From assembly GCA_965115855.1 (NCBI GenBank), contig OZ220470.1, positions 1,743,385-1,807,384 of the forward strand: DNA of 64,000 nt, written 5' to 3'. A program made the position numbers and the translations under genes. Numbering within the stretch: position 1 is the stretch's first letter; each line of letters starts with the position of its first letter. The notes below the pieces were generated by a model. The model was not told where the DNA came from. It made no database searches and saw only the letters and a list, made by a program, of their open reading frames with translations. Source of the stretch: Vicinamibacteria bacterium. Lineage in GTDB: Bacteria; Acidobacteriota; Vicinamibacteria; Marinacidobacterales; Marinacidobacteraceae. Positions 2,905 through 57,688 of this stretch are shown here, in pieces.

Positions 2905-2980
2905 CCCGCGGCCATCGAAGACGGACGCGATGTGCCCCGGGCGGATCGGGCGCGTCCCGCTGGCGGCGCCGGCGCCCATC

Positions 2981-5392: not shown

Positions 5393-5639
5393 CCCGCCTT
5401 CGCTGATCGGGGCCCCGTCCCGGGATGGCCCTCCATCCCGACGCCCCGGGCGGGTCCCTCCGGGCGACCAGGGGCGAGCACACCTTCCGGGCGGACCGAT
5501 CCGGATCACCGGCTCTCCCAACCACCATGCGGCGCCGGCCCGCCACTGGATTCGCGGCGACGGCGCCGAAGCGGGGCGCCGGGCTCCCGGGAAAGCGAAA
5601 GCTGCAGTCCTGGTCCGTCGCTTGCATGGGATGCCCGCC

Positions 5640-7997: not shown

Positions 7998-8274
7998 CCC
8001 GCCGTTGCTGATCGGGGACCACCGTCTCCGGAGTGGACTCCACCCCGCGATCCACCCTTGGCGTACCGGGCGCGTCCTTCCGGAAGACTCCGGGCAACCA
8101 GGGAACGCGCGCGCCTGTCGCGCGAACCGATCCGGGCGGCAGCGGACGGCGCATTTTCCGAAGCAGAACCCCGGCGTCGAGCCTGGAAACTCCGGCCCCC
8201 GGTTCAAGACCGCCCCGCCCGGTTGGCCCACGGCTTGCTTTGGTCAGGGAACATCTACACGGAGGTCCCACACG

Positions 8275-10668
8275 ATGACAAACACCGAATACGCAACCCG
8301 GATTCTGATCCTGGCCGCGGTGATTGGCGGCTGCTCGTCACGAAGTGTCACAAGACCGACCACTCCACCAGCGGGAGCCCAGCCGGAACCGGGGGCCGTG
8401 GCCTCGGTTCTTCCGGTAACGGAGAACACCTCGCCGCCGCCGCGCGACCTCCCGGAAGCGCCGGAGGACGTCTGCATTCCGACCCATGCGAACGGCTGTG
8501 TTCCCGCCCCCGAGTTCAACAAGATGGCGACGGAGATGGCCCCGGACTACGCCAAGCACTCCGGCTTCAAGGCGCAGTGGGGGCTCGAATCCATCAACGC
8601 CCACCTCGCGTACGCGCACGTGAACCTGCTGGAGGGGCCGGATGCAGCCCCGGGCGATGGCGTCACCATCGGTGTCATCGACAGCGGCATCGATACCGAG
8701 CATCAGGCCTTCGAGGGCAAGGACATCCACTTGGAGTTGCTTCTTGGAACCAAGGGAGACACCGGGGAGCACACCTCCCACGGCACCGCGGTAGCGAGCA
8801 TCGCGGCGGGAACTCGCACCTCCGAACCCAATGCGCCGCACGGAGTCGCGTGGGGCGCCGACTTGGCGGTCTGGGCGATCCCGCTTGGAACCGCCACGCA
8901 ATACGAGCCGATAACGTTGGCGGAACTCGCGGAATCGGATGCCGAGTTCGCCGACATCCTCAAGCCGGCCTTCGCCTGGAGCGACGGAGAGCGGACCGTC
9001 GACATCCTGAACCTGAGTATCGGCTACCACGGCCTGATCGACGCATATACCGTGGAAGATCTTCGCGCGAACATGCCGAAAACGATCTCCGCCCTCGCCC
9101 AAGCGGATTTGTCCGACAAGACGATCCTGGTGTGGGCGGCCGGAAATGCCCATGGGGCCCTTTGCAGCGAAGGGGCTCCAAACTGTGTGGATAAAAAGAT
9201 GGACGCGGTGTCAGTCGACATTCTCGCAGGCCTCGTGACGCGGCTCGAGGAACTCCAGGGGCATTCCATCGCCGTCGTCGCCCTGGACCCGAACGGAGGC
9301 GGGATTGTCAGTTTCTCGAACCGCTGCGGCATCGCCGCCGACTTTTGCATTGCGGCCCCCGGCGCGGAAATCGGACACGCCTTCTTCGGGCCCAAGGGCC
9401 GATTAAGCGGAGACTCGGAAAACAAGGAAACCGCCCGCGGATGGAGTATCGGGGGGGGGACTTCCTACGCCGCCCCGATGGTCTCGGGCGGACTCGCGGT
9501 CATGAAGCAGCTCTTCCGGGATCAGCTCTCGAACCAGGAACTGGTAACCCGACTCTTCGCAACCGCCGACAACACCGGCATCTACGCCGACCGCACCGTC
9601 TACGGCAACGGCCGCATGGACCTCGGCGCCGCCACCTCACCGGTCGGAGTGCTCGGTGTCCCCATCGAAACCACCGGCCTCCTGGCAACCGGCAACGCCG
9701 CCCTCCAGTCCACCCGACTGCGCCTCGGCGCCGCCTTCGGTGACGGCATCCAGGATGCCCTCGACGACCGCGAGATCATGTCCCTCGACAGCCTCGGCGC
9801 CCCCTTCTGGCATCGCCTCGACGGGTTTGCGGTCACGACCGACGGCCCCTCGATGGCGGCCCGGCTCCGCAGCTTCCTCGGCCCCGACCCGGGGTCGGCG
9901 TTCCCTGGCGGCACCGGCCTTCAGCCGCCCGCTGCCGGGGTCCGCAGCGACATCCTGCGGATGCCCACTGCCACCGGTAGCGGGCACCTTGCGCTCGCCG
10001 AGGGCGCGGTGATGTTCAGCGCCTTCGACCACGGCGGCCTCTCCGCCACCGCGTTCACCACCGGGAATCGGCGCGCCGGCATGCCGGCTGCTGGCGCCGC
10101 CTTCGGTTGGCGACCGGGCAACCTTCCGGTCGGAATCCGCGCCGGCTGGATCGAGGAGCGGGAGACGCTGCTCGGCAGCATGGGTCACGGGGCGTTCGGG
10201 AACCTCTCCGCCACCACCGGCTTCGTCGGGATCGACAGTGGAGTCCAGGTGGGCCGCTGGCAGCTCGGAGGGAGCGGCGAGTTCGGCATGGCCCGCCCCG
10301 AGGTCCACGGGGGAATCATCCAGGACATCTCGACGCTCGCCACCACCGCGTTCTCGGTGCACCTCGGAACCACGCTGGCGGATGCCAGCTCGCTGGAGTT
10401 TTCGGTGTCGCAGCCGCTGCGGGTGGAGGCCGGCCAGGCCGCGCTTCAAGTGCCGGCGGCCCGCACCCGGCAGGGGACGGTGACCTATCGCGGGTTCACA
10501 GCCGATCTGGCCCCCGGGAGCCGCTGGATCGATCTGACCGCGCAATGGAACCGGCGTCTCGGTCCGGGGGAGTTCCGGTTGGGAGCGGTCCGCAGCCACC
10601 AAGCCGGCCACCGGAAGGCGTTGGGAGCGCCGATGGCCCTCCTCTCCGGCTGGCGATGGACCTTCTGA
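8275..10668 (+). CDS. Subtilisin-like S8 protease lipoprotein/autotransporter-like, copy 4
   Basis: ATG at 8275 preceded by GGAGG (8261-8265); MTNTEYATRILILAAVIGGC lipobox; catalytic motifs; C-terminal 1.1 kb nearly identical to copy 3. Confidence 0.8.
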   Translation: MTNTEYATRILILAAVIGGCSSRSVTRPTTPPAGAQPEPGAVASVLPVTENTSPPPRDLPEAPEDVCIPTHANGCVPAPEFNKMATEMAPDYAKHSGFKAQWGLESINAHLAYAHVNLLEGPDAAPGDGVTIGVIDSGIDTEHQAFEGKDIHLELLLGTKGDTGEHTSHGTAVASIAAGTRTSEPNAPHGVAWGADLAVWAIPLGTATQYEPITLAELAESDAEFADILKPAFAWSDGERTVDILNLSIGYHGLIDAYTVEDLRANMPKTISALAQADLSDKTILVWAAGNAHGALCSEGAPNCVDKKMDAVSVDILAGLVTRLEELQGHSIAVVALDPNGGGIVSFSNRCGIAADFCIAAPGAEIGHAFFGPKGRLSGDSENKETARGWSIGGGTSYAAPMVSGGLAVMKQLFRDQLSNQELVTRLFATADNTGIYADRTVYGNGRMDLGAATSPVGVLGVPIETTGLLATGNAALQSTRLRLGAAFGDGIQDALDDREIMSLDSLGAPFWHRLDGFAVTTDGPSMAARLRSFLGPDPGSAFPGGTGLQPPAAGVRSDILRMPTATGSGHLALAEGAVMFSAFDHGGLSATAFTTGNRRAGMPAAGAAFGWRPGNLPVGIRAGWIEERETLLGSMGHGAFGNLSATTGFVGIDSGVQVGRWQLGGSGEFGMARPEVHGGIIQDISTLATTAFSVHLGTTLADASSLEFSVSQPLRVEAGQAALQVPAARTRQGTVTYRGFTADLAPGSRWIDLTAQWNRRLGPGEFRLGAVRSHQAGHRKALGAPMALLSGWRWTF

Positions 10669-10813
10669 CCCGCCGCCGTGATCGACCGTCTCCAGGGCGG
10701 GATCGGCGCCCCGCGCCATCCCGGGTGATCGGCGGCGACGAGCTTCCCGGGGAGCGAACGTTCCGTCCCTTGTCTTGCGACAGTCTGGCCCACTGTTTGC
10801 CATTGTGCCCCCC

Positions 10814-13153
10814 ATGACCAGAGCCGAATATGTAATCCGGATTCTGATCGTGGCGGGCATGCTCAGCGCCTGCTCATCGCGTCCCCCGAAGACCCCGACC
10901 GTTCCAGCGGCCGGGAATCCGACACCCCCGCCATCAGCCAAGGCGCCGGAACCGGATCCCGCTCCGCCTCCCCCGTCGCGCGGCCTCCCGGACGCGCCGA
11001 AGGACGTCTGCATTCCGACCCATGCAAACGGCTGCGTTCCCGCTCCCGAGTTCAACCGGATGGCGACAGAGAAGGCGCCCGACTACGCCGGGCACTCCGG
11101 TTTCAAGGCGCAGTGGGGGCTCGAATCCATCAACGCGCACCTCGCCTACGCGCACGTGAACCTGCTGAAGGGGCCGGACGCGGCCCCGGGTGAAGGGGTC
11201 ATCATCGGCCTGGTCGACTCCGGCATCGACACCGAACATCCGGCCTTCGAGGGCAAGACCATTCACCAGGAGTTCCTGCTCGGAACCACCAGGGAAACCG
11301 GGGAGGAATTCTCCCATGGCACTGGGGTGGCAAGCGTCGCGGCCGGCATGCGAATCTCCGACCCCGACGCCGCACATGGAGTCGCCTGGGGGGCGGATCT
11401 TGCCGTCTGGGCGACTCCGCGCCCGGATTTGAAGGACGAGTCGATCACCTTGGCGGAACTCGCCGGGGAGGACGACTGGATCGCCTCGATCTTCCAGCCG
11501 GTCCTCGCCTGGAGCAGCGGAGGACGATCCGTCGACATCCTGAACCTGAGCTTCGGCTACGACGGCCTGATCGACGCATACTCCGAGGAAGGCCTTCGCG
11601 CGAACTTGCCGAAGACGATCGCCGCCCTCGCCCAGGCGGATGCACCCGACAAGACAATCCTGGTATGGGCGGCCGGGAATGGCCACGGCGGCAAGATCGA
11701 CGCCACCTCGGCCATGATCCTCGCAGGACTCGCGGCACGCATTGAGGAACTCCGTGGACACACGGTCGCGGTGGTCGCCCTGAGTCCCGACGGGGGCGGG
11801 ATCACCAATTTTTCGAACCGCTGCGGCATCGCCGCCGACTTCTGCATTGCCGCACCCGGGGAAGAGGTGAGAGTCGCCTCATTCGGGCCCGCACCGGGGG
11901 AACCGAACGGAGTCCGGAGCCACGAGGACGGGGCAGGGACGTCCCTTGCCGCCCCAATGGTCTCGGGCGGACTCGCGGTCATGAAGCAGCTCTTCCGGGA
12001 TCAGCTCACAAGCGAGGAACTGGTGACCCGACTCTTCGCCACCGCCGACAACACCGGCATCTACGCCGACCGCACCGTCTACGGCAACGGCCGCATGGAC
12101 CTCGGCGCCGCCACCTCCCCGGTCGGCGTGCTCGGCGTCCCCATCGAAACCACCGGCGTCCTGGCGACCGGCAACGCCGCCCTCCAGTCCACCCGACTGC
12201 GCCTCGGCGCCGCCTTCGGTGACGGCATCCAGGATGCCCTCGACGACCGCGAGATCATGTCCCTCGACAGCCTCGGCGCCCCCTTCTGGCATCGCCTCGA
12301 CGGGTTTGCGGTCACGACCGACGGCCCCTCGATGGCGGCCCGGCTCCGCAGCTTCCTCGGCCCCGATTCCGGGTCGGCGTTCACCGGCGACGGCGGCGCC
12401 AGCCTGCACCCGACCACCGCCGGGGTCCGCAGCGACATCCTGCGGATGCCCACCGCAACCGGCAGCGGGCACCTCGCCCTCGCCGAGGGGGCAGTGATGT
12501 TCAGCGCCTTCGGCCAGGCCGGCCTCTCCGCCACTGCGTTCACCACCGGAAACCGGCGCGCGGGAATGCCGGCCGCCGGTGCCGCCTTCGGCTGGCGACC
12601 GGGCGACCTTCCGGTCGGGATCCGCGCCGGCTGGATCGAGGAACGGGAGACCCTGCTCGGCAGCATGGGCCACGAGGCGTTCGGGAACCTCTCCGCCACC
12701 ACCGGCTTCGTCGGGATCGACAGCGGAGTCCAGGTGGGCCGCTGGCGGCTCGGCGGCAGCGGCGAGTTCGGCATGGCCCGCCCCGAGGTCCACGGGGGAA
12801 TCATCCAGGACATCTCGACGCTCGCCACCACCGCGTTCTCGGTGCACCTCGGGACCACGCTCGCGGATGCCGGCTCACTGGAGTTTTCGGTATCGCAGCC
12901 GCTGCGGGTGGAGGCCGGCCAGGCCGCGCTTCAAGTGCCGGCGGCCCGCACCCGGCAGGGGACGGTGACCTACCGCGGGTTCACGACCGATCTGGCCCCC
13001 GGAAATCGCCAGATCGACCTGACCGCACAATGGAACCGGCGACTCGGTCCGGGGGAATTCCGGTTGGGAGCGGTCCGCAGCCACCGAGCCGGACACCGGA
13101 AGGCGCTGGGCGCGCCGATGGCCCTCCTCTCCGGCTGGCGATGGACCTTCTGA
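10814..13153 (+). CDS. Subtilisin-like S8 protease lipoprotein/autotransporter-like, copy 5
   Basis: Start MTRAEYVIRILIVAGMLSAC within ORF 10775..13153; catalytic motifs; shares GNGHGG insertion type with copy 2. Confidence 0.8.
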   Translation: MTRAEYVIRILIVAGMLSACSSRPPKTPTVPAAGNPTPPPSAKAPEPDPAPPPPSRGLPDAPKDVCIPTHANGCVPAPEFNRMATEKAPDYAGHSGFKAQWGLESINAHLAYAHVNLLKGPDAAPGEGVIIGLVDSGIDTEHPAFEGKTIHQEFLLGTTRETGEEFSHGTGVASVAAGMRISDPDAAHGVAWGADLAVWATPRPDLKDESITLAELAGEDDWIASIFQPVLAWSSGGRSVDILNLSFGYDGLIDAYSEEGLRANLPKTIAALAQADAPDKTILVWAAGNGHGGKIDATSAMILAGLAARIEELRGHTVAVVALSPDGGGITNFSNRCGIAADFCIAAPGEEVRVASFGPAPGEPNGVRSHEDGAGTSLAAPMVSGGLAVMKQLFRDQLTSEELVTRLFATADNTGIYADRTVYGNGRMDLGAATSPVGVLGVPIETTGVLATGNAALQSTRLRLGAAFGDGIQDALDDREIMSLDSLGAPFWHRLDGFAVTTDGPSMAARLRSFLGPDSGSAFTGDGGASLHPTTAGVRSDILRMPTATGSGHLALAEGAVMFSAFGQAGLSATAFTTGNRRAGMPAAGAAFGWRPGDLPVGIRAGWIEERETLLGSMGHEAFGNLSATTGFVGIDSGVQVGRWRLGGSGEFGMARPEVHGGIIQDISTLATTAFSVHLGTTLADAGSLEFSVSQPLRVEAGQAALQVPAARTRQGTVTYRGFTTDLAPGNRQIDLTAQWNRRLGPGEFRLGAVRSHRAGHRKALGAPMALLSGWRWTF

Positions 13154-46591: not shown

Positions 46592-47283
46592 GCGCGGCGC
46601 CTCCCGCGGCCCGAGCCGAGGCGGCGGAAGCGGCGGAGAAACGGCGGGCCCGGCGGATTTCCCGGACCCTGGCCAGGGAGTATCCGGACGCCGACTGCGC
46701 CCTCCGTCACGAATCGGCGCTTCAGCTGCTGGTCGCCACCATCCTCTCCGCCCAGTGCACGGACAAGCGGGTAAACCTGGTCACCCCCGCGCTTTTCGCC
46801 CGCTATCCCGACGCCGGCGCCTTCGCCGAGGCGCGCGCCGAAGAGCTTGAGAAGCTGATCCACTCGACGGGTTTTTTCCGGAACAAGGCGCGGTCCATCG
46901 TCGGTGCCTGCCAACGCATCCGCGACCACTTCGGCGGGAAGGTCCCGGGCCGGATGGAGGACCTGCTGTCGCTCCCCGGCGTGGCGCGGAAGACTGCCAA
47001 TGTGGTTCTCGGAGTCTGGTTCGGCAAGGCCGAGGGCGTGGTGGTGGATACCCACGTCTTCCGCATCGCCCACCGACTGGGACTGGCGCCGAAGAAGAAC
47101 CCGGCCCGAACCGAGGCGCGGCTGATGGCGCTGCTCCCCCGCACCCACTGGGTGGCGTTCAGCCACCGGATCATCCTTCATGGCCGGAGCGTCTGCCCCG
47201 CCCGGAAGCCCCGTTGCGGCGCGTGCGCGTTGCGACGGGATTGCCCGCGCCAGGGAGTCGAGGAACCGGATCCGGCGGCATGA
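46588..47283 (+). CDS. nth: Endonuclease III (DNA glycosylase/AP lyase)
   Basis: GTGA overlap with thiG stop; HhH-GPD ...[13 protein letters not shown]..., FeS cluster [17 protein letters not shown]. Confidence 0.93.
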
Positions 47284-48323
47284 TGCGTCTCGGGCTGTAC
47301 CTGGGCTACCTGCGGAAGGGCGGAGCGAACCCGGTACGCTCGGCAGTGGCGGCGGAAAAGGCCGGCTTCGACTCGGTGTGGGTCGCCGAGGCGTGGGGCG
47401 CCGACGCGGTCTCGGTCCTCGGTTTCCTCGGTGCTGCCACCGAACGGATCGGCCTCGGGACATCCATCCTTCCCATCGGCTCCCGCACCCCGGCCCTTCT
47501 CGCTCAGACGGCGGCGACCCTCGACCACCTGAGCGGCGGGAGGTTCCTCCTCGGACTCGGCGTTTCCGGCCCGCAGGTCATGGAGGGATGGCACGGCGTA
47601 CCCTTCCGGCATCCCGGAATCCGACTGCTGGAAACCGTCGAGATCGTCCGTCGCGCGCTCCGGCGGGAGACTCCGCTCACCTATTCGGGCCGGCATCACC
47701 AGCTCCCGCTGCCAGGCGGAACCGGACTCGGCAAGGCGCTGAAGCCGGGATTCCCGGCTCCGGTGCGCGAGATTCCCATCCACCTCGCGACCATCGGACC
47801 GCGGAACACCGAGATCGCCGCCCGGATCGGCGACGGATGGCTGCCCTTCTTTTTCTCCCCGGAGCGGTGCGCAGCGGTCTTCGGTCCGGCGCTCGAAGCC
47901 GGGCGCGCCGCCCGCGAGCGCCCGGAACCCCTCGATGTGGCGCCGCTGGTTTCCGCTGCGGTCGGGAACGACATTCCGGCGCTCCGGGATCGCATGCGGC
48001 CGAACATCGCCTTTTACGTCGGCGGCATGGGCGCGCGCCAAAAGAACTTCTATCGGGACCTGGTCGATGGTTATGGCTTTCCCGAGGAAGCCGGCCGTAT
48101 CCAGGACCTGTTCCTTTCCGGCCGACGACGGGAGGCCGAGTCGGCCGTACCGGACCAACTGGTGGATGAGGTCTCGCTGGTGGGGCCGCCGGGGCGCCTC
48201 GCCGAACGGGTGGCGGCGTACCGGGAGGCGGGCGTCACTACCCTGATCGTTTCGCTCCCACCGGCCGACGACGGGGCGCCCGATCCGAAGGACCTCGAGA
48301 CCCTGCGGCGAATCTGCTCCTGA
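47280..48323 (+). CDS. Luciferase-like monooxygenase (LLM) family flavin/F420-dependent oxidoreductase
   Basis: ATGA overlap with nth stop; [10 protein letters not shown]...GFDSVWVAEAWGADAVSVLGFLGAATERIGLGTSILPIGSRTPALLAQ... TIM-barrel LLM pattern. Confidence 0.8.
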   Translation: MMRLGLYLGYLRKGGANPVRSAVAAEKAGFDSVWVAEAWGADAVSVLGFLGAATERIGLGTSILPIGSRTPALLAQTAATLDHLSGGRFLLGLGVSGPQVMEGWHGVPFRHPGIRLLETVEIVRRALRRETPLTYSGRHHQLPLPGGTGLGKALKPGFPAPVREIPIHLATIGPRNTEIAARIGDGWLPFFFSPERCAAVFGPALEAGRAARERPEPLDVAPLVSAAVGNDIPALRDRMRPNIAFYVGGMGARQKNFYRDLVDGYGFPEEAGRIQDLFLSGRRREAESAVPDQLVDEVSLVGPPGRLAERVAAYREAGVTTLIVSLPPADDGAPDPKDLETLRRICS

Positions 48324-49528
48324 CCAGCGCACCCGCCGTCGGTGGAGGACGCCGGGCACTGCCGCCAGTGCCCACGCTGGCAGGGGCCTCGGCGCCGCCG
48401 CCGAACAACGCGGCGCCACCGTCATACCGCAGCGAGTCGGGCCGTTCTGTTGTTCGAACGCTCCGGAACGTCGTTGGCGGCGAGTTTGGCATGGATCGGA
48501 GTACGCGACCGAAACAGCAAATTGCGGGCAAGTGATGGAGGCCGCGCGCCCCCGGACCGGGGAACTGACACGACAGTTCCGGGATTCCGAGTACTGCACC
48601 CGCGAGAACCGGTCAACGATGCGGGTGATCGGCAAGGCCGAGTACCTTCCCCGGGTTACGGGAACCCCCGGTTCCGGGTTTACCAACCTGAAGCGCAACT
48701 CGACACCCGGTGTCCTTGCGAGGATCGGTACCACGCCCGCTGCGGACATGGGGACTCGGATCACCGACGTCTTCCGACACGTCTTGCGCAATCTCGAACG
48801 CATTCGCCTTGGGCGAGACCCGGGTGGCGACGGCGCCATCCCGCCCCGAAGCATCATCTCTCCCGACACCGAGGAGGCACGTCTGCGCCCCGGTTCTGAT
48901 CAACACGCGAAACACTACGAAACACGTTTCCTGACCATCCGGCTCCTCTCAATCCACATTTTCCACCATCCCAAGGTACTTCAACCGGAAAACGGAACTC
49001 CGAAACCTGCAATGGGGCACTCTCCACCAGGTTAATGGAGGCGGGTCTGATACTTGGCGTATCAAAGCCGGACAGAAACAGGTTCGCAACGCCGCGGGAT
49101 GTCCAAAGCGATCCGCTCGTCATCCGCATCCGTCTCTCGCAAGGCCAGGTTGCGATAGTTCCCTGCCTCCCGACCCTCCGGATAAATCACCGGTTCGGAC
49201 TACCGTATTCCATCGGCCAAGACCTTCTTCAGACTCTCCGCCAGAAACTCGAGACCTGTCGCCGGACACTCTCCGCCGCTCATCCAGCAATTCGCGCGAG
49301 GCGCGGTCGGCACACTTCATGGCCATTCGTCAACTCCTTGCAAAACGCACCGCACGTCCCCACCCCATCCCGAGCTTCAAACAGTTCCCACCGTAAGACC
49401 CGCAATCTCACGCATCCCCCCCAACATCACCCCGGCTCGCCCACCCACCCACCCTTAAAACAACCACACCCGTCGTGTAGTTGCTGCCGCGAGGCGGCGC
49501 CGTGCCAATCCCTGATCGAAACTCCTAC

Positions 49529-49535
49529 AGGAGGT
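49529..49535 (+). promoter_or_regulatory. Strong Shine-Dalgarno (AGGAGGT) 7 nt upstream of lipoprotein A start codon
   Basis: ctacAGGAGGTaggtgatATGaaa. Confidence 0.6.
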
Positions 49536-49542
49536 AGGTGAT

Positions 49543-51846
49543 ATGAAACTGAATCCCCCCAATGGGCGGCACGCCATCAGTCGCTGGCGCCCGGTCTCGG
49601 TGGGCCTCGCGTTGGTCTTGGGAATCGGTCTGCTCGCAGCTTGTGGCGACGACGATCCTGCCCCCGCTCCGGCCCCCGCTCCGGCCCCCGCGCCAGCTCC
49701 CGCTCCAACTCCAGAGCCAGAACCGGAACCCAAACCCGAACCCAAACCCGAACCCAAACCCGAACCCAAACCAGAGCCGGAACCAGAACCCGATCCCTTC
49801 GTCCTCTCAATGGCTCCCCCCAAAGCCGACGCGGACAAAGACTGCATGGGGTACGCTTTCTGCCCAGATGAAGAAACTGACGCCAAAAAAGCCATGGCCT
49901 CTCCAAACTCCATGATGACCGTCTCCTCCTCTCACGACGCCGTCATCACCCCCCTCTGGATGGATTCAGAACCCAACGGTATCGGTGTCTCCGCAGCCGA
50001 CGACAACATGCCCTTCAAAAATGTCGACTGGAACGCCATGCAATCCACCGTCGCAAACATGGGCGTCTCTTTCAAAGCCGTCAGAGTCTCCATCGGCGCT
50101 AACCAAGAAAAAATCCCAACCTCCGAAATCCTCTACATCACCTGCGGCCCATTCGCCTGCTCCGACGCCGCAGCCGAAAAACCCCAAGCTCCCGAAATCT
50201 CCGCCGAATCCACCAACATCTGCGCCAACTGGGACCCCGATCTTACTCTACAAGTCGGTATGATCGATAATGATACGAGAAGTACGTCGGGAGCTTGGTA
50301 TACCAACAAGATTATCCCAGCGTATGATTCGCTCGGCGGTACTAGAAGTGATGCCACGCATTACGATTTTTTGGATATAGTGTCAACAACAAGAACAACA
50401 AATGCAAGTATCTGGTACGCTGATGACGGAATCGATATCGGATGGTCGTCGACTTCCGATGTGGACATGAAAGTCAAACATGTCTTCGGAAACTACAGCG
50501 TCATGGGACCAGATGCGAATAAAGGTACGAACAAACCTCTCAATGTCGATCTTAAAGCGGAGAATGTTTCCTACGCCCCCGCCGTTCAAACAACCAAATT
50601 GACTGTTGATGCTGCTGATAGAACCGCAACTACTTCAGATAAAGTTGACAAACTGTCCGAGGCCTGTGTCGATGCAACCAAATACTCAGGCGTTAGCGGT
50701 TCAGCCCAAAGACCAAACAATTGTTTCCGCCTTCGAGTTTCCGGCACGGAAACTGCCGGGTTTGTAGGAACCCCGAGATTGACGAACCACCTCTCCAGTT
50801 ATAGTGTGGAAGTCTCTCCCAAGGACCCCATGCTCTGGGGCAAGGTCGCATGGAAGGATGGTCCGCTCAAGGATCTCAAATGCGAAACCATGCGTTTCGC
50901 CGCTGCCGACCAAATTGATGTCTGCGAACTCTTCGAAGAGGAGGTCGATCACGCTCTGTCAGGCGGTTGGGACGACGTCGAGGTGAAGGGTAGTAAGCGT
51001 AAGCTCGTCAATCCACGTGATGGTATGGGAGTAGAGCATCCCTATGCCGGTCTCGTGCGAGTTTTTCTCAAAAACGCATCAAGCGTAAAACCTCGGCACT
51101 TCCGGAGACTCTGGTTCGACGACAACATGGATGGAAGCATCGTGGATAAAGCAGAGACATTTGGATACCAATATGTGTTGAATTTCGACGAAGAAGCAAC
51201 CGAACGAAGTGGCAATAACCCCGCACACGGCAAAGAGGGGAGTGGCTGGGATATAAAGCCAATATCATTTGGTCAGACATCGGCTCTCGAACCGGTTAGA
51301 CTTTCTCGGAGAGCGAGCGATCTGTACAATTATAATGATTACACTGAAACCCCAGGCTCCGTGTCAAATGACGGAGACTACATTAAGGCCTTTAATGTCA
51401 ATGCCATCTGGACACCAGTAGTCGACCAAAATCTTCTTCCCCTTCCTAAATACGGCGACTTTGGGAAGGTTGATGTTGCAAAGACTACAGTAAACGACGC
51501 CTCCACAACCAGGTCAGTTGAAGCTGCTGTAGATGGAGACGGCATAGCCGATAACTACTACGGCATTCCCGCCAGATGCTCGGATGAAGACGGCGGCAAG
51601 GGGTGCGATGCGAAGTGGGAAGAGGACTTCGAGATTCTCTTTTCGGATCTCATCTTCGGCTGCGAAACAACGCACGCCGTGACCATCAGTTGTGAATGGG
51701 ATGCCCAAGGTACATTCGGGAGGCCCCCGGAGAAGCATGCAATAAAGGACGGTACAACGGGTGGTGACGACAGCGTAGCAGATTACGAATACGCGAGACT
51801 TCTTATCAAAGAGATAGATCATTTCGCCAAGTGCACCGTGGAATAG
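49543..51846 (+). CDS. Variable surface lipoprotein A: signal peptide + lipobox (LLAAC), Pro-rich PAPAP/KPEP linker, Cys-containing domain of unknown family (expression copy)
   Basis: 767 aa; MKLNPPNGRHAISRWRPVSVGLALVLGIGLLAACGDDD...; low-GC (~45%) body vs ~70% host; ends ...HFAKCTVE; intact RBS. Confidence 0.75.
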   Translation: MKLNPPNGRHAISRWRPVSVGLALVLGIGLLAACGDDDPAPAPAPAPAPAPAPAPTPEPEPEPKPEPKPEPKPEPKPEPEPEPDPFVLSMAPPKADADKDCMGYAFCPDEETDAKKAMASPNSMMTVSSSHDAVITPLWMDSEPNGIGVSAADDNMPFKNVDWNAMQSTVANMGVSFKAVRVSIGANQEKIPTSEILYITCGPFACSDAAAEKPQAPEISAESTNICANWDPDLTLQVGMIDNDTRSTSGAWYTNKIIPAYDSLGGTRSDATHYDFLDIVSTTRTTNASIWYADDGIDIGWSSTSDVDMKVKHVFGNYSVMGPDANKGTNKPLNVDLKAENVSYAPAVQTTKLTVDAADRTATTSDKVDKLSEACVDATKYSGVSGSAQRPNNCFRLRVSGTETAGFVGTPRLTNHLSSYSVEVSPKDPMLWGKVAWKDGPLKDLKCETMRFAAADQIDVCELFEEEVDHALSGGWDDVEVKGSKRKLVNPRDGMGVEHPYAGLVRVFLKNASSVKPRHFRRLWFDDNMDGSIVDKAETFGYQYVLNFDEEATERSGNNPAHGKEGSGWDIKPISFGQTSALEPVRLSRRASDLYNYNDYTETPGSVSNDGDYIKAFNVNAIWTPVVDQNLLPLPKYGDFGKVDVAKTTVNDASTTRSVEAAVDGDGIADNYYGIPARCSDEDGGKGCDAKWEEDFEILFSDLIFGCETTHAVTISCEWDAQGTFGRPPEKHAIKDGTTGGDDSVADYEYARLLIKEIDHFAKCTVE
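49726..49773 (+). repeat. 12-nt tandem repeat (gaacccaaaccc; KPEP) x4 in linker of lipoprotein A; 2-3 copies in mirrored position of copy B
   Basis: Direct reading of sequence; in-frame copy-number difference between paralogs. Confidence 0.8.
49743..50274 (+). repeat. Left arm of perfect 532-bp inverted repeat (identical to 54150..54681 rev-comp) inside 5' part of lipoprotein A
   Basis: Identical six-frame ORF translations on opposite strands (49966..50187 vs 54237..54458; 49985..50263 vs 54161..54439; coordinate sums constant 104424) plus manual rev-comp comparison to boundaries. Confidence 0.9.
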
Positions 51847-51885
51847 GACCTACTTCCTGTTGATCTGATCGCTGTCGATCAGTCC

Positions 51886-51924
51886 AGAACCCCGGGGCTA
51901 TTCGGCCCCGGGGTTCTTCATTTG
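51886..51924 (+). terminator. Rho-independent terminator downstream of lipoprotein A (13-bp GC stem agaaccccggggc/gccccggggttct, then ttcattt)
   Basis: Perfect hairpin immediately after stop codon 51846. Confidence 0.7.
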
Positions 51925-52176
51925 CACATAAACCGGCGCGTGACAGCGACGCAAACCGACACGCTTCACAAGTTTGTTCAATTTGGGTGTTCGAAACCCG
52001 CTTCGCGGGCGTATCCCGGATCGGGTTCCCGTGGTTCGACGGACCTGACCTCTTCCCGTTGACGAACTGAGGTGATCTCGGGTCCTTGGACAGTTTGAGG
52101 GCTTGGTCAGGGTGCAAAAGGTCATCCCTTCGTGATCGTCGAATTCGCCCGAACGGGTGAACCCTGGCTTGTTTTC

Positions 52177-52440
52177 TCCGCCGGATCCAGGATCACCGGG
52201 AAAGTCGAATCTCGCGATTGGCTCACGACCTTACGACAAGAGTCCCTCGCCATAGGCTTCGGCGGGCGTCCGCCCTCCGAGGGCCGAGTGCGGGCGCTGG
52301 GTGTTGTAGAACCGCATCCACTCCCCGATCACTCGTTCGGCCGCGAACCCGTCGGCGAGCTCGTGGAGGTACACCGCCTCGTACTTCAGGGACCGCCACA
52401 GCCGTTCGATGAAGATGTTGTCGAGGAGCCGCCCGCGACC
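52177..52440 (-). mobile_element. IS3-family transposase remnant (C-terminal rve/integrase fragment + probable terminal inverted repeat TGAACCCTGGC...), 5'-truncated
   Basis: ORF 52231..52488(-) contains ...LLDNIFIERLWRSLKYEAVYLHELADGFAAERVIGEWMRFYNTQRPHSALGGRTPAEAY (IS3 OrfB C-terminus); only ~65 aa present. Confidence 0.7.
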
Positions 52441-52486
52441 GTCCATTGAGAGCCGGGTACCCGCCGCCGCGTTAGGTTCATGTGCC

Positions 52487-52523
52487 AATGAAGAACCCCG
52501 AGGCCATCCGGCCCCGGGGTTCT
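52487..52523 (-). terminator. Rho-independent terminator downstream of lipoprotein B (mirror of the 51886..51924 hairpin, one mismatch)
   Basis: gaaccccgaggcc-atcc-ggccccggggttc on + strand; followed on minus strand by ttcattgg. Confidence 0.6.
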
Positions 52524-52562
52524 GGACTGATCGACAGTGATCAGGTCAACAGGAGATTGGTT

Positions 52563-54824
52563 CTATTCCACCGTGCACTTGGCAAAGTTGTCAACGTTCG
52601 CGCGACCGGCGATATCAGCCACGCCGAGTTTGCCTTTCACCCTATTGTCGTTCCCAGTTTCCGACGCAGGAGGAAGATTGTTCAACAGGCCTTGGGCATC
52701 CCACTCGCAACTAAGGGTCACCGTACGCGTCGCTTCGCAACCGAAAATGAGATCCGAGAACAGGACCTCGAAGTCCTTTTCGAACTCGGCGTCGCAGGCC
52801 TCATTGCCCGCGTCACCATTGTCGCCTTTGGAGCAGGTGGAGGAACCGGCGGGATAATTGTCGGCCACGCCGTCCGGCTTGGCCAAATCTTTACCATAGA
52901 GATCCACTTTCCCGAAGTCTCCGTAAATGGGCATCATCCCGCCATCCGTGAGTGTCCCCCAAATGAAGTCGATATTCCGATTGTGAAAATACTCGTGATC
53001 GGATGCATTAATACCAGATATCTCGTGGGGGGAGGCGTCTCCACGGTTAACAAACCCGTACAGGTCATGAATAACACGAGCCAAAATGGTACCTCTTGAT
53101 GGGATAGAATCCCTTGCGGATGTAGTACCAGGGGCAGCATCGAAATAACCTAATTCGTTGCTATTTCCCATCACTACCAAACCGTCCTTGAAGTAGTCCA
53201 AACTCTCTTCTTCTCCGTCGTCGGCGGTCGGGTGTTTGAATGCCGCCCCTGCATTGCCTTCTGCTATGCTAGAGCCCCGAGCTTCACTCTGAAGAAGCGT
53301 ATTGGGACCGTCGGCAACCGACCCATCCAAGTTGTCATCGAACCAGAGCCGCTTAAACCGCTTGGGCTTCGGGCGGCCTCCTTTGGGGCCGACCTGCCAA
53401 GTAGCCAGAACAAATCCGCCGTCTGCTCCTTCTACGATACTCCCTCGGTTATTCTCACTATCTGAGTTGCTGTTCGCCGCAATGCGCCGTTTGACATTTA
53501 TCCTGACGTCGCCCCAGCCCTTGGCCAAGGCTGCATCGACCTCGTCTTCCAGGAGTTCGCAGACGTCAACCTGATCGGCAGCGGCGAAGGACATGGACTC
53601 GCACTTCAGGTCCTTGAGCGGACCCTCTTTCCATGTGACTTTGCCCCAGAGCATGGAGTTGGAGTCCTTTGGAGAGACTTCCACGCTGTATCCATCCAAG
53701 TGGTTCGTCGTGCGCGCCCGACCCGGGCCTCTGACAAGACTTTCAGTTCCACCGACGCGGACGCGGAAACACTGGTCCGGTTTTTGGACACCACTGCGCG
53801 AAGAAGAGTAATCGACATCAACGGCGCACGCGTCTTTCAAATTCCCGACTTTTTCCAACACAGGAGTGGCCGGCGTGACCGGCTCCTTGATTTTATCGAC
53901 TTGGATGGCGGGGGCGTATGTGGTCCTGTTGGCAGAGTCGACCGTGAATGGTTTGTTCGTACCTTTTTTCGCATCCGGCCCCATGAAGTTGTAATTACTG
54001 AAAACATGCTTCACGGTCATGTCCACACTGGAGGTCGACACCCAACCGAGATCGATTCCGTCGTCTTCGGCCCAGATGTCTGGATTTGATGGGTTGGCGC
54101 CTAGATCATGAATAGTCCTGTTTTCAAATCTACCTCGCATATCATAGATATCATTATCGATCATACCGACTTGTAGAGTAAGATCGGGGTCCCAGTTGGC
54201 GCAGATGTTGGTGGATTCGGCGGAGATTTCGGGAGCTTGGGGTTTTTCGGCTGCGGCGTCGGAGCAGGCGAATGGGCCGCAGGTGATGTAGAGGATTTCG
54301 GAGGTTGGGATTTTTTCTTGGTTAGCGCCGATGGAGACTCTGACGGCTTTGAAAGAGACGCCCATGTTTGCGACGGTGGATTGCATGGCGTTCCAGTCGA
54401 CATTTTTGAAGGGCATGTTGTCGTCGGCTGCGGAGACACCGATACCGTTGGGTTCTGAATCCATCCAGAGGGGGGTGATGACGGCGTCGTGAGAGGAGGA
54501 GACGGTCATCATGGAGTTTGGAGAGGCCATGGCTTTTTTGGCGTCAGTTTCTTCATCTGGGCAGAAAGCGTACCCCATGCAGTCTTTGTCCGCGTCGGCT
54601 TTGGGGGGAGCCATTGAGAGGACGAAGGGATCGGGTTCTGGTTCCGGCTCTGGTTTGGGTTCGGGTTTGGGTTCGGGTTTGGAGCGGGAGCGGGAGCGGG
54701 AGCCGGGTGGGTGGGTGGGATGGTGGATGCTGATAGCGGAGGCGGCGCGGTACCCGAGGAGACTTGGCGCCCGATTGATCCGTGGGGCCGACGGGCGGTG
54801 TCCGACAAGGGCGCACAGGTTCAC
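52563..54824 (-). CDS. Variable lipoprotein paralog B (5'-truncated/silent cassette candidate): lacks signal peptide; 5' 532 bp identical to copy A, remainder diverged and mosaic
   Basis: 753 aa ORF starting at GTG with non-hydrophobic N-terminus MNLCALVGHRPSAPRINRAPS...; PAPAP linker segment is out of frame with KPEP segment relative to copy A; ends ...NFAKCTVE. Confidence 0.6.
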   Translation of the reverse strand: MNLCALVGHRPSAPRINRAPSLLGYRAASAISIHHPTHPPGSRSRSRSKPEPKPEPKPEPEPEPDPFVLSMAPPKADADKDCMGYAFCPDEETDAKKAMASPNSMMTVSSSHDAVITPLWMDSEPNGIGVSAADDNMPFKNVDWNAMQSTVANMGVSFKAVRVSIGANQEKIPTSEILYITCGPFACSDAAAEKPQAPEISAESTNICANWDPDLTLQVGMIDNDIYDMRGRFENRTIHDLGANPSNPDIWAEDDGIDLGWVSTSSVDMTVKHVFSNYNFMGPDAKKGTNKPFTVDSANRTTYAPAIQVDKIKEPVTPATPVLEKVGNLKDACAVDVDYSSSRSGVQKPDQCFRVRVGGTESLVRGPGRARTTNHLDGYSVEVSPKDSNSMLWGKVTWKEGPLKDLKCESMSFAAADQVDVCELLEDEVDAALAKGWGDVRINVKRRIAANSNSDSENNRGSIVEGADGGFVLATWQVGPKGGRPKPKRFKRLWFDDNLDGSVADGPNTLLQSEARGSSIAEGNAGAAFKHPTADDGEEESLDYFKDGLVVMGNSNELGYFDAAPGTTSARDSIPSRGTILARVIHDLYGFVNRGDASPHEISGINASDHEYFHNRNIDFIWGTLTDGGMMPIYGDFGKVDLYGKDLAKPDGVADNYPAGSSTCSKGDNGDAGNEACDAEFEKDFEVLFSDLIFGCEATRTVTLSCEWDAQGLLNNLPPASETGNDNRVKGKLGVADIAGRANVDNFAKCTVE
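54150..54681 (-). repeat. Right arm of perfect 532-bp inverted repeat (see 49743..50274)
   Basis: As for left arm. Confidence 0.9.
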
Positions 54825-54970
54825 TTGAACGCATCAAGCATCCTGTGCGCGATTGCACGCACACGGACGGGTCGGCGATTTACAAGGAACGGGAATAAAT
54901 ACACGGGCCGGCTTTCACGCGTGTTATCCCAAGTCATTCCAGGCGCGTCTCCGTGCTCCCGGAAACGCGC

Positions 54971-57688
54971 CTATGGCTCGGTGGAACCGTTGGTTCGGTA
55001 TCCCAGGCTGAGGAGGTTGGCGAGCAGTCGGTAGGCGCCCGGCGTTCCCTCCGGGAGCTGGCGCCACAGGCCGAGACCCAGATAGAGCCAGCGACCCTCG
55101 CCGTGACGGATCTCCACGAGGATGCCGCGCTTCTCGCCAGCGTTGTACGGGAAGGGATCCTCCGACGCCAGCAGGTCGATCGCGGCGGGATCGTCGCCGG
55201 TCTCGAGGAAGTAGAGGCCCCGCTCCTGGACCCATCCGTCCCAGTCGGCGGGGCCGATGCGGTTCGGGCCGAGAAAGACCGGATGATCGGGAACCAGGAC
55301 CTGCATGGGCGCATTCTCGTCGGTAATGCGGCCGCGTCCGACCCGAATCGGTGAGGGCGCCCAGGGGCCGGCATTGAACTCGAACTTGTTGTACTGGACG
55401 AGGAGGGTGCCGCCATCCGCCACGAAGTCCAGCAGGCGCTGGTTGTAGGTGCGGAGGTCGGGGCGGGCGAGATAGGCGCGCACGCCGAGCACGATGGTGT
55501 CGAATCGGGAGAGGTCGCCCTCCGCGAGATCCTCCTCATCCAGGAAGGTCAACGAAACGCCCAGTTGGCCGATGGCCTCCGCCACCTCGTCTCCGACGCC
55601 CTCCACCCAGGCGACCTTCACCGGGGCCACCGTCGCGTCCAGAACCCGCGCCAGCGCCTCCGCCGGGCGGAAGCGATACCGGGTCTCGATGTGGTGGTAG
55701 GCGATCGTCTCGACCGTCTCCCCGAAGACCGTGCCGTCCGCCAGCCGGACTTCGGCGGCGAGCCGGTACCCACCATCGGCGACGCCCGCGGGAACCGTGG
55801 CCTCGAAGGCGACGCCCTGCTCTCCGGGGCCGGAAAAACGGAGCGTTGCGGATGCCGGACGCACCTCCCAGCCGGATGGTGCATCAAGACCGACCTCGAC
55901 CTCGGCCTCCTCCACGCTTCGCCAGGTCACCCGCACCGAGAGGGAGCGGGTTCGTTGCCCCCGGGGAAACACCACGATCGGGGGTGTCACCCGAACCGCG
56001 GCAAGCGGCAACACGGAAACCTCCTTCTGCTTCTCGGTTCCCACGAAGGGACCGCCATAGCGATACGCGACCGGCAGGGTGACGCTTGCGGGAATGTCGT
56101 CGGTCTCGAAGTCCACCCGGGCGCGGACCGGGGACGGAGGCGCGGCGGCCCCGAAGAGCGACGGATCGGAAGCGACGAACCGGTCCCGGCCCGGCGCCGC
56201 GTCGAATACCTGCCGACTGAGCGTCGCATCCGCTGCCGCGGTCACCCGGAAGGAGGCGCGGACCGCATCGCCTGTCGCCATCTCCACCGGGAAGTCGGCG
56301 CCGACCACCACCGGTCGCGCCTGCGAACGGGATCCGCGCCCCCGGGCCGGGGGTTGCGCATTCGGCCCGGTCTCCCAGCCGTCCGGGGTCTCTATCGAGA
56401 TCCCGGTCAGCGTCAGCGGTTCCGAACCGCCCGCCTGCACGAAGACCTCGGCCCCGAAGCTTCCCCCCGGAACCACTTCGCCGGCGTCCGCCACCGGATG
56501 CGTCAGCAACCCGTGGGCGAGCGCGAGTGCTTCCTGAATCTGGACTTCCTTGGGGGCGACGCGGTGCCGGATCTCGAGGACGGCGCCCGGATCCAGGTCG
56601 GCGGAGACCTGAAGCACCCGCCGCGCGGCGATCAGGGCTTCCCGGAGCGCCGGGATGGACTCGTGGGGTGATGTGGAGGAAAAGGCCCACTGCGCACCAC
56701 CGACGGCTCGTTCGAGATCGCCGAGAGCCCGCTCGGTGGCGACGACCGCGTCCGGGTCTCCATGCACGAAGGCCCGCAGCCGTTCCAGCCCCACTGGAAT
56801 ACCCGGGAAGAGATCGTTCTCGCCGGTCTCCGAAACCAGATTCCGCATTTCCACCAGGACCGCCGGCCCGGACGCCGGGGCGCCGCGCACCTGTCCCATC
56901 CCCTGACAGCGGTGCGCCGAGCGGGCCTCCTGACCGAGGTCCGCGTATGTCCGCCCGAGCAGCGGATCCCAGATCGCGGTGTCCACCCGCACTACCCGGT
57001 CCCCGGCGACGGTGCCCCCCCCGACGCCCCCCACGAAGAGCTTGAGCGGTTGCCAGGGACGCAAACCGAGTTCCCGATGCTCGGGAAACCGCTCGGCGTC
57101 GCCGGCAGCGTCGAAGGCTTCGATGGTGATCCGCCCGGTCGCCTGGTGGTGCTGGCCGCCTCCCTCGCCCGCGGGTGGGAGGGTCAGGATCACGTCGGGA
57201 CGAAGGGTCCGGATCATCCGCACCACTTCACCGAGCGTTTCCTCGTGGCCCCACTTCTTGAGGGTCTCCTCGACACTGAACGAGTATCCGAAATCGGAGA
57301 CCATCCCGAAGAACTGTTCCACCGCGTCCAGCCGGTGCGAGGTGAGGAGTTCCTCGGTGCGCAGGATCCGGAGGCCGTCAAACAGTTCGGGGCCGATCTC
57401 GTTCTGACCGCCGCCGCCCCGGGTCAGCGTCAGCAGCGAGACCCGGGCCCCCATCCCTCGGGAAAGGCGGGCGTGGAGGGCGTTGTTCTCGTCGTCCGGG
57501 TGGGCCGTGATGGTGAGGACGGAGACGCCGCTTTCGATCTTGCGCAGCTTGAGCCCGAGGCCGGATGCGCCACGATCCTCGGCGAGGGGGCGGAGCTGTG
57601 CAGCGGTCGGAGCGGCAAGCAGCAAGACGAGCAGCGGGGCGGCTGCCGCTAGGACTGCCCGCACTCGGTGCGTGGATGCGGTGATCAT
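54971..57688 (-). CDS. Secreted PIG-L/LmbE-family N-deacetylase fused to large C-terminal domain (905 aa)
   Basis: Signal peptide MITASTHRVRAVLAAAAPLLVLLLAAPTAAQ; ...LTITAHPDDENNALH... PIG-L motif. Confidence 0.75.
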   Translation of the reverse strand: MITASTHRVRAVLAAAAPLLVLLLAAPTAAQLRPLAEDRGASGLGLKLRKIESGVSVLTITAHPDDENNALHARLSRGMGARVSLLTLTRGGGGQNEIGPELFDGLRILRTEELLTSHRLDAVEQFFGMVSDFGYSFSVEETLKKWGHEETLGEVVRMIRTLRPDVILTLPPAGEGGGQHHQATGRITIEAFDAAGDAERFPEHRELGLRPWQPLKLFVGGVGGGTVAGDRVVRVDTAIWDPLLGRTYADLGQEARSAHRCQGMGQVRGAPASGPAVLVEMRNLVSETGENDLFPGIPVGLERLRAFVHGDPDAVVATERALGDLERAVGGAQWAFSSTSPHESIPALREALIAARRVLQVSADLDPGAVLEIRHRVAPKEVQIQEALALAHGLLTHPVADAGEVVPGGSFGAEVFVQAGGSEPLTLTGISIETPDGWETGPNAQPPARGRGSRSQARPVVVGADFPVEMATGDAVRASFRVTAAADATLSRQVFDAAPGRDRFVASDPSLFGAAAPPSPVRARVDFETDDIPASVTLPVAYRYGGPFVGTEKQKEVSVLPLAAVRVTPPIVVFPRGQRTRSLSVRVTWRSVEEAEVEVGLDAPSGWEVRPASATLRFSGPGEQGVAFEATVPAGVADGGYRLAAEVRLADGTVFGETVETIAYHHIETRYRFRPAEALARVLDATVAPVKVAWVEGVGDEVAEAIGQLGVSLTFLDEEDLAEGDLSRFDTIVLGVRAYLARPDLRTYNQRLLDFVADGGTLLVQYNKFEFNAGPWAPSPIRVGRGRITDENAPMQVLVPDHPVFLGPNRIGPADWDGWVQERGLYFLETGDDPAAIDLLASEDPFPYNAGEKRGILVEIRHGEGRWLYLGLGLWRQLPEGTPGAYRLLANLLSLGYRTNGSTEP

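Follow-up and report, generated by a model that had tools for sequence, protein, structure and literature searches.

We analysed a 64,000-nt stretch of DNA from an uncultivated Vicinamibacteria bacterium (referred to here in full as the window), which contains two members of a lipoprotein family, genes A and B. The two genes are arranged tail to tail and lie among the following features, listed in order along the forward strand:

49440..49454, plus strand: first copy of CCCACCCACCCACCC, 89-103 nt upstream of the ATG of A
49529..49545, plus strand: Shine-Dalgarno sequence AGGAGG and the ATG of A
49543-51846, plus strand: gene A, one continuous frame encoding leader, PAPAP and KPEP
49543..49644, plus strand: lipoprotein signal peptide of A, with LAAC at its end
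49656..49797, plus strand: Pro-rich linker of A, PAPAP and KPEP/EPEP 12-nt repeats, all in frame
49742..50275, plus strand: constant block, arm 1, comprising the linker end and the N-terminal domain to ...QVGMIDND
50276..51846, plus strand: variable body of A and its stop codon
51887..51916, plus strand: terminator-like hairpin of A, GAACCCCGGGGC...GGCCCCGGGGTTC, then TTCATTTG
52231..52488, minus strand: IS3-family transposase remnant (C-terminal ~70 residues only, rve_3), between the 3' ends of A and B
52493..52522, minus strand: terminator-like hairpin of B, homologous to that of A
52563-54824, minus strand: gene B, convergent with A
52563..54148, minus strand: variable body of B and its stop codon, open
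54149..54682, minus strand: constant block, arm 2, the inverted repeat partner of arm 1
54681-54703, minus strand: PAPAP-coding remnant (GCTCCC)3GCTCC, -1 relative to the KPEP/domain frame
54705..54719, minus strand: second copy of CCCACCCACCCACCC (GGGTGGGTGGGTGGG on the plus strand)
54720..54970, minus strand: spacer between the stop of an upstream co-directional PIG-L-family gene and B

Leaders were detected by a lipobox pattern combined with Kyte-Doolittle hydropathy windows. In A, the lipobox is LAAC, with the Cys codon at 49642-49644, and the top 12-residue hydrophobic window scored 2.71. As originally predicted, MKLNPPNGRHAISRWRPVSVGLALVLGIGLLAAC is followed by PAPAP and then by KPEP in a single frame; the linker repeat units are 6 and 12 nt long and hence preserve that frame. 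The ACAGGAGGTAG..GATATGAA context at the Shine-Dalgarno sequence and ATG is kept in family members from related genomes. A search of the 1.2 kb preceding A gave no Rfam match. A consensus sigma-70 scan of positions 48300-55100 returned 0 sites, even upstream of A, and so has no power to show that B is promoterless.

For B, the original prediction was a missing secretion signal and a PAPAP stretch out of frame with the KPEP and domain-coding sequence, and we found both. No lipobox was present in any of three frames across the 460 nt upstream of the conserved domain, and the top hydrophobic windows over the same 460 nt and three frames reached just 0.8-1.4. Where the remnant (GCTCCC)3GCTCC joins AAACCCGAACCC, which encodes KPEP, the frame is off by one base: translation in the domain frame gives GSRSRSRS-KPEP, and that of ORF 54509..54808 gives PAPAPAPNPNP. 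Had a sequencing error hidden an A-like leader, its correction should have restored one, but repair of the frameshift would yield no leader because the upstream sequence encodes none.

Two candidate starts for B, GTG 54824 and ATG 54614, both lack a preceding Shine-Dalgarno sequence. Public gene callers place the start at the internal ATG (54612-54614), giving a product that begins MAPPKADADKD, and the 683-aa protein P0002 corresponds to B, being identical from this residue onward. The PIG-L-family gene lies on the same strand as B, 147 nt upstream, with its stop ending at 54971. The spacer showed no homology to the upstream region of A, had no Shine-Dalgarno sequence and encoded no leader in any of its frames; a terminator-like site was not found in it on that strand. 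With no leader encoded in any upstream frame, the claim that B is not exportable as it stands is supported, and B probably can be neither made nor exported on its own. Taken alone, the 5' loss of B fits a pseudogene.

The remainder of B is intact. There were 0 stops in its 753 codons, compared with 19 and 32 in the other two sense frames, and the 683-codon body is open and retains 93 of 97 family-conserved residues, equal to A, with every conserved cysteine kept. Neither a disabling mutation nor the residue loss expected of a pseudogene was found in the body. Since it combines an absence of stops and this level of residue conservation with a dN/dS of 0.16 (over alignable blocks), the body of B looks maintained, to judge by its sequence.

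A and B share a constant block of 534 nt, present as two arms (49742-50275 and 54149-54682) that match with 100% complementarity and are separated by 3,873 nt. Elsewhere their similarity is 78-86%, and sliding-window identity falls abruptly after ...IDND, from 100% to 40-80%. The two genes are paralogs with a long near-identical 5' region and divergent 3' parts in opposite orientation. Outside the block, pS was 0.66 and pN 0.37, with synonymous sites saturated, and because of these values we regard A and B as old paralogs whose recent sharing is limited to the block. Approximately 70 differences would be expected within the block from the divergence seen in a sister genome, and 0 were found between A and B; the identity of the block is either recent or continually renewed. 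Each body also brings its own conserved terminator, and the 3' flank of A (51823-51934) is 86% identical to that of B.

The C-rich motif said to recur 5' of B does so, with exactly two copies of CCCACCCACCCACCC in the 64 kb (shuffle expectation 0.09; 0 of 100 shuffles gave two). The second copy directly abuts the PAPAP remnant and forms the 5' limit of similarity to A, as comparison of the 5' regions found no homology to A upstream of it. This bears on the suggestion that B is a 5'-deleted copy of A, which is not supported for the whole gene: loss of ~226 nt from an A-like ancestor would place the motif directly against the remnant, and the 5' end alone fits that origin, but for the gene body, at the pS and pN given above, the suggestion is wrong. 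We also considered the paired motifs as terminal repeats of a mobile unit and rejected this, as no target-site duplication was found and the low-GC tract reaches left to ~48.5 kb.

The host genes flanking A and B are intact. The island itself is foreign in composition, with a GC3 of 0.56 compared to 0.83 in a host gene. No recombinase domain was detected among the large ORFs from 36 to 64 kb, where the IS3 remnant is the sole trace of a mobile element.

Two further family members, P0001 and P0003, are encoded on the same 3,016,700-bp contig as A and B, and were called from internal Met residues; they appear to be leaderless. At the protein level, their 150-aa block is identical to that of A and B, with divergence setting in at one common residue. 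P0003 carries a frameshift towards its 3' end, so decay is under way in one or more of the leaderless copies. Identity profiles of A, B, P0001 and P0003 showed a conserved scaffold alternating with hypervariable stretches, without clear donor tracts.

To place these copies in context, we compared them with relatives in other genomes. In the sister genome Ca. Marinacidobacterium OZ241856.1 (Acidobacteriota), all 32 of 32 copies keep their own leader, and in 31 of these a C10-C31 tract lies close behind the ATG, leaving 11 in frame and 20 out. Block identity between these copies had a median of 87% and a maximum of 92.5%, and among all 32 there was no tract of at least 100 nt at 93% and no homogenised block. 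Not one leaderless copy was found among ~60 copies in four related genomes. Within the 64-kb window there is no homopolymer longer than 9 nt and no long frame-setting tract of the kind that underlies slipped-strand switching: A has only a C6 run, and B has no leader. Selection for variation probably acts on the lipoprotein family, and given the poly-C tracts of the sister genome and their absence here, variation of the protein in the window genome appears to follow a route other than such tracts.

All family members are lipoproteins in which numerous cysteines are conserved and the stalk is rich in Pro, a combination that points to an extracytoplasmic protein. Pfam and NCBIfam gave matches to the low-complexity linker only, and a PDB profile search gave matches to FN3 domains only, contributed by distant members. 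An AlphaFold2 model built from 16 sequences was poor (mean pLDDT 57), and Foldseek returned nothing from the PDB at E <= 0.001. A JGI metagenome scan revealed no relative, and we found no literature on Marinacidobacterium. The protein is a beta-rich, Cys-rich surface lipoprotein, with no fold or function assigned beyond that. For the marine Vicinamibacteria, this describes an unannotated lipoprotein family whose Pro-rich stalk is followed by an N-terminal domain that stays constant and a Cys-rich body that varies.

We hypothesized that A is an expression site and B its silent partner, and that recombination in the block switches the bodies, a reading to which we assign a probability of roughly 0.52. 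A and B would then act as a recombinational switch between two states, or possibly among several partners, that varies a surface lipoprotein. A would hold the only promoter, ribosome-binding site, start codon, signal peptide with lipobox and Pro-rich linker seen in the window, and B would be a promoterless, leaderless partner whose variable body is complete, looks functional and has a separate terminator. A RecA-type homologous crossover anywhere in the 534-nt block would invert the 3,873-nt segment 50276-54148, setting the body and terminator of B behind the promoter, leader and constant domain of A and parking the body of A at the silent site. One such event would be predicted to swap which variable body is made. 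Inverting the segment in silico produced an intact 772-aa ORF consisting of the leader of A, the block and the body of B. The assembled orientation is the only one represented in this single consensus from a metagenome-assembled genome, and the predicted inversion products (A leader with B body, and A body from MAPPKAD) had no exact match in the protein collection. The switch presupposes that inversion, or gene conversion with the dispersed P0001 and P0003, would actually happen, and that selection would maintain inversion as a mechanism of variation. The silent cassette originally predicted for B is strengthened by the intact leaderless body, the tail-to-tail block and the two further copies; it is plausible yet unproven.

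The main rival to the switch is that B is a recently disabled relic, which we consider rather unlikely but worth serious attention. According to this explanation, an IS-associated rearrangement or deletion took the promoter and leader, unselected gene conversion made the block, and any inversion is incidental. Truncation at the 5' end next to an IS remnant usually marks a pseudogene, and here the IS3 transposase remnant lies between the two genes and B has no start signals. The homogenised, most conserved segment of a family can come from ordinary gene conversion with no programmed role, and conversion between paralogs would end where similarity drops. The 3' decay of P0003, the foreign composition of the island and the small number of copies (four known here, three of them leaderless, compared with at least 32 in the sister genome) would also fit a declining family. 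However, the 683 open codons of B and its conserved residues, including all conserved cysteines, equal the expressed copy, and a block perfectly homogenised in four copies with a common boundary is not what we observed among the 32 copies of the sister genome. The convergent layout with separate terminators is, moreover, exactly what a working switch requires.

Two other explanations were weighed, and both seem very improbable. B could be expressed independently by read-through from the PIG-L-family gene, starting at GTG 54824 or ATG 54614 and yielding a non-exported product; that gene is indeed co-directional and close, with no terminator-like site between them on that strand. Neither candidate start has a Shine-Dalgarno sequence, however, and a cytoplasmic product would be at odds with a family that is uniformly lipoprotein, rich in conserved cysteines and Pro-rich in its stalk, and whose leader is present in all ~60 relatives. 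Alternatively, repeat collapse or mis-joining during assembly could have generated the perfect block or removed the leader, given that the source is a metagenome-assembled chromosome and that A is unexpectedly missing from a protein collection that holds B and the neighbouring genes. Such an artefact is difficult to reconcile with two further, independently placed copies that show the same block sequence and boundary, with junctions that are clean and in frame between intact flanking host genes, or with the upstream spacer of B, which runs seamlessly on from the PIG-L gene stop.

The proposed switch resembles several known systems. A working precedent for the arrangement is the vsa locus of Mycoplasma pulmonis, where one expression site provides the promoter and N-terminal coding DNA. 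Its silent genes have no working 5' end of their own, and a previously silent body acquires that of the expression site through DNA inversion (PMC4534519). As in vsa, and also the vpma genes of M. agalactiae, the locus described here encodes variable lipoproteins and pairs a putative expression site with a putatively silent gene that lacks its 5' end: A has the Shine-Dalgarno sequence, ATG, lipoprotein leader and linker, and B has an intact body and no 5' end. It differs in that inversion in vsa is site-specific and relies on a dedicated recombinase and short sites, whereas no recombinase was found in 36-64 kb and the repeat is a perfect 534 nt of coding region. The host is also an acidobacterium rather than a mollicute, and the protein family is unrelated, without a Pfam or NCBIfam match.

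The sapA homologs of Campylobacter fetus have a conserved 5' region of ~600 bp, divergent 3' parts and a single promoter. Inversion between oppositely oriented copies takes place in the conserved 5' regions and depends on RecA; the invertible segment carries the promoter, and each silent copy is a full ORF. A and B share with sapA the opposite orientation of paralogs with conserved 5' and divergent 3' parts. Unlike sapA, the promoter and leader would lie outside the segment here with both variable bodies inside it, and the silent copy has no start codon or signal peptide. That geometry, with the promoter and N-terminal part outside and two opposed C-terminal parts inside, is shared with the Moraxella pilin inversion and the G-segment of phage Mu. 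Both rely on short inverted repeats and a neighbouring invertase (Piv or Gin), and neither feature is present here. Slipped-strand lipoprotein families offer another comparison, as the same protein family appears to behave in this way in OZ241856.1, although the window copies have no long tract.

To our knowledge, nearly all cases of programmed surface-protein variation come from pathogens, with a few from gut commensals. One family in two related genomes would here show two apparent routes, massive poly-C switching in one and, in the other, an expression site with leaderless partners and a recombination block that is perfectly homogenised. If true, this would extend contingency-locus strategies to uncultivated environmental or host-associated acidobacteria, presumably directed against phage, grazers or host recognition, and would allow two mechanisms of variation to be compared cleanly, as they occur in nature, within a single protein family.

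The opposite strand of CCCACCCACCCACCC, GGGTGGGTGGGTGGG, is a G-quadruplex-type sequence with four G3 runs and 1-nt loops. Upstream of pilE in Neisseria gonorrhoeae is a compact three-layer G4 with its G-rich strand antisense (PMC3547852, PMC4412290), and the pilE G-quadruplex requires short loops (bioRxiv 10.64898/2026.06.30.735570). A putative G4 motif upstream of A likewise has its G-rich strand antisense, and the locus would also be like pilE/pilS in having one expressed gene, dispersed promoterless 5'-truncated copies, and a constant N-terminal and variable C-terminal part. Unlike in pilE/pilS, the putatively silent B has a copy of the motif as well, a small-RNA promoter was not identified next to it, and no mosaic trace of segmental conversion was found. 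G4Hunter-type scoring gave comparable scores at other sites in this window of 67% GC and did not single out GGGTGGGTGGGTGGG.

It is doubtful, in our estimate, that a counterpart of pilE/pilS has evolved independently here, in an uncultivated marine acidobacterium, with G4-initiated exchange replacing poly-C switching. Were it so, the three-tetrad GGGTGGGTGGGTGGG on the antisense strand would attract recombination and replication proteins or hold them up, and the putative G4 would start exchange in the adjacent 534-nt block between A and B, P0001 or P0003. The lineage would have substituted this for the slipped-strand switching by poly-C seen in 31 of 32 sister-genome copies. We also asked if CCCACCCACCCACCC might be the decayed poly-C tract of the A leader and rejected this, as a separate C6 run (49558-49563) is found 100 nt further downstream, in the leader itself, where it occupies the position of the C10-C31 tracts in the sister genome.

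A and its paralog B lie tail to tail within a 6.5-kb low-GC tract (GC 0.47-0.62, compared to ~0.70 in the flanks), arranged as follows:

47214-48323, luciferase-like monooxygenase gene, one flank of the tract
49543-51846, + strand, A (767 aa), with an AGGAGG Shine-Dalgarno sequence, ATG, lipoprotein signal peptide ending LAAC, PAPAP and KPEP linker, and Cys-rich body
52231-52488, - strand, IS3-family transposase remnant (profile positions 298-368 of 369, the last ~70 codons)
52563-54824, - strand, B, the convergent paralog of A
54971-57688, PIG-L-family gene, the other flank

GC3 was ~0.56 in A and B, compared to 0.83 in the adjacent PIG-L-family host gene and 0.85 for family members in a sister genome, OZ241856.1, so that the module as a whole is compositionally foreign, suggesting that it was acquired from a lower-GC donor. 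The 3' ends of A and B are separated by two homologous terminator-like hairpins and the IS3 piece, which sits directly past the B terminator; the remainder of the element is missing. The ~1.1 kb 5' of A (48324-49440) is intermediate in GC (0.61), with a + strand strongly enriched in C (GC skew -0.12 to -0.27), and contained no convincing ORF and no Pfam or Rfam match.

The original prediction described B as lacking a secretion signal, with a linker frame-shifted relative to A, and its descriptive points on both genes were all borne out. No hydrophobic segment or lipobox was present in any frame upstream of B, where the best 12-residue hydropathy was 0.8-1.4, compared to 2.71 in A. A (GCTCCC)3GCTCC remnant is offset by one base from the frame of the KPEP repeats, and repairing this frameshift would still leave B without a leader, as the upstream sequence encodes none. 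Independent gene calls in the public protein collection likewise begin B at an internal Met (entry P0002, identical to B from MAPPKAD on). The recurring C-rich motif is the 15-mer CCCACCCACCCACCC, with exactly two occurrences in the 64 kb (chance expectation 0.09), one 5' of A and one abutting the PAPAP remnant of B. The two upstream regions have nothing in common beyond the 15-mer and the PAPAP remnant of 24 nt. The position of the motif fits the proposal that B derives from a 5'-deleted copy of A, while the lack of homology further upstream and the age of the paralogous bodies speak against it. Because homology stops upstream of the motif, we suggest only tentatively that the 5' end of B came from an A-like 5' region minus ~226 nt (promoter-proximal DNA, RBS, ATG, and signal peptide).

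The two genes carry an inverted repeat of 534 nt with 100% identical arms (49742-50275 and 54149-54682, spaced 3,873 nt apart), and identity drops abruptly to 40-80% directly past the codons for ...QVGMIDND. Outside this block, pS was 0.66 (saturated) and pN 0.37, with a dN/dS of 0.16 in alignable blocks; here A and B are old paralogs. The body of B shows no decay, with 0 stops in 753 codons (19 and 32 in the other sense frames) and 93 of 97 family-conserved residues (conserved meaning present in 85% or more of 38 relatives), the same score as A. Exact matches to two neighbouring proteins assign the window to a contig of 3,016,700 bp. Two further copies on this contig, P0001 and P0003, match the first ~150 residues of A and B identically and begin to diverge at the same residue; both are called from an internal Met, which makes them appear leaderless. 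In P0003 and in L019 (P0011), a sister-genome locus, 3' frameshifts convert the conserved C-terminal Cys-rich segment to Arg-rich out-of-frame sequence, so some copies are decaying in both genomes. The A protein, tried with five start choices, was absent from a 15-billion-protein collection, where the best homolog returned was at most 79% identical; the collection includes B, P0001, P0003, and two of the neighbouring genes on that contig.

No Pfam model, NCBIfam model, or solved relative was found for this lipoprotein family. In a profile search of public metagenome proteins, members turned up in several dozen clusters at 50% identity, among many sequences that matched just the FN3 part of the profile. 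Four complete metagenome-assembled chromosomes (Ca. Marinacidobacterium, Vicinamibacteria; phylum Acidobacteriota) were the only genomes in which copies were located. Amino-acid identities to the window of 92% for ThiG and 85% for the monooxygenase mark OZ241856.1 as a close relative. It carries 32 distinct copies, many in tandem, all with their own in-frame lipoprotein leader and 31 with a poly-C tract of 10-31 nt, at most ~12 nt from the ATG. The tracts come right after ATG-AAR-x-x (leaders ~140-240 nt upstream of position 10001 in loci L001-L020), and 11 of the tract-bearing copies have their ATG in frame and 20 have it out of frame, with tract lengths read from a consensus assembly that may contain errors. 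Such tracts are a hallmark of slipped-strand phase variation, and the lipoproteins appear to form a very large phase-variable family; poly-C frame switching accounts for the internal-Met starts called for many of its proteins. Further C/G tracts of 15-27 nt adjoin other genes in the L001-L020 loci, OZ251549.1, and OZ242011.1. One copy in OZ244068.1 (L021, ~10000-10070) has a normal signal peptide and lipobox and no homopolymer tract, but the one ATG near it is in the wrong frame; this could be an OFF copy, or translation could begin at a non-canonical start. In the 64 kb of the window, homopolymers reach 9 nt at most, and the A leader has a C6 run only. Between sister-genome copies, the N-terminal block had a median identity of 87% and at most 92.5%, and 93% was not reached over any tract of 100 nt or more. 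With leaders on all 32 copies and no homogenised tract there, leaderless copies and a perfectly homogenised block are peculiar to the window genome.

The 534-nt block evidently recombines between copies: judged by the sister genome, it should show ~70 differences, yet there are none. Because A and B are mutually inverted, any crossover in the block would invert 50276-54148. When this segment was inverted in silico, the ORF from the A ATG encoded 772 aa, comprising the A leader, linker, and constant domain followed by the B body, with the B terminator 3'; the reciprocal product placed the A body at the leaderless site. We propose that A is an expression site and B its silent partner, and that a crossover in the block would bring the B body and terminator behind the A leader, linker, and constant domain. 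Gene conversion with dispersed copies would be a second possible route. We give this reading a probability of about one half, inferring switching and its selective value from the observed anatomy. The silent cassette of the original prediction is thus retained as the favoured interpretation of B, with inversion across the block as the most direct route.

The main alternative, less probable but serious, sees in B a relic that was disabled recently; unselected gene conversion would then keep the block identical. The IS remnant between A and B, the decay of P0003, and the few family copies in the window genome speak for a relic; however, the B body is intact and fully conserved, four copies are homogenised to one common boundary while the 32 sister-genome copies are not homogenised at all, and the geometry with separate terminators fits a working switch. 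Independent expression of B as a non-exported protein is very unlikely given the absence of a Shine-Dalgarno sequence and a family made up uniformly of extracytoplasmic, Cys-rich lipoproteins. We consider an assembly artefact just as improbable, as the junctions are clean and the block boundary is identical in four copies.

In how it would recombine, the silent-partner module resembles Campylobacter fetus sap, which has a long conserved 5' region and undergoes RecA-dependent inversion. In what it would do, the closest system is Mycoplasma pulmonis vsa, where silent lipoprotein genes lack a 5' end and receive a promoter and N-terminal coding DNA through inversion (PMC4534519). The module belongs to neither: its promoter lies outside the invertible segment, its silent copy has no start codon, and its protein family is unrelated to both. 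No site-specific recombinase or short recombination sites were found in it, and a literature search on the genus Marinacidobacterium returned nothing. We class it as a putative system of variation by expression site and silent copy, of which none is known from this phylum.

On the antisense strand, the motif at A and at B reads GGGTGGGTGGGTGGG, four G3 runs with 1-nt loops, and the window has no short-loop G4 motifs other than these two; in DNA this GC-rich, they do not stand out by a windowed G4Hunter score. In Neisseria gonorrhoeae, pilin antigenic variation depends on a compact three-layer G4 upstream of pilE, next to which lies a small-RNA promoter pointing the opposite way from pilE (PMC3547852, PMC4412290), and short loops are reported to be essential for it (bioRxiv 10.64898/2026.06.30.735570). 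Unlike at pilE, the motif is also present at the silent copy, and no small-RNA promoter was identified beside it. It was not found upstream of family members in other genomes, and we treat the likeness as a lead only.

Elsewhere in the window, five tandem ~2.5-kb genes (517-13153, + strand) encode subtilisin-like (S8) proteins with lipoprotein leaders, the fourth containing a G9 run (9451-9459). Their C-terminal halves, ending ...LSGWRWTF, are 93-99% identical between copies and their N-terminal parts 67-90%; a possible reading is a set of autotransporter-like proteases in concerted evolution.
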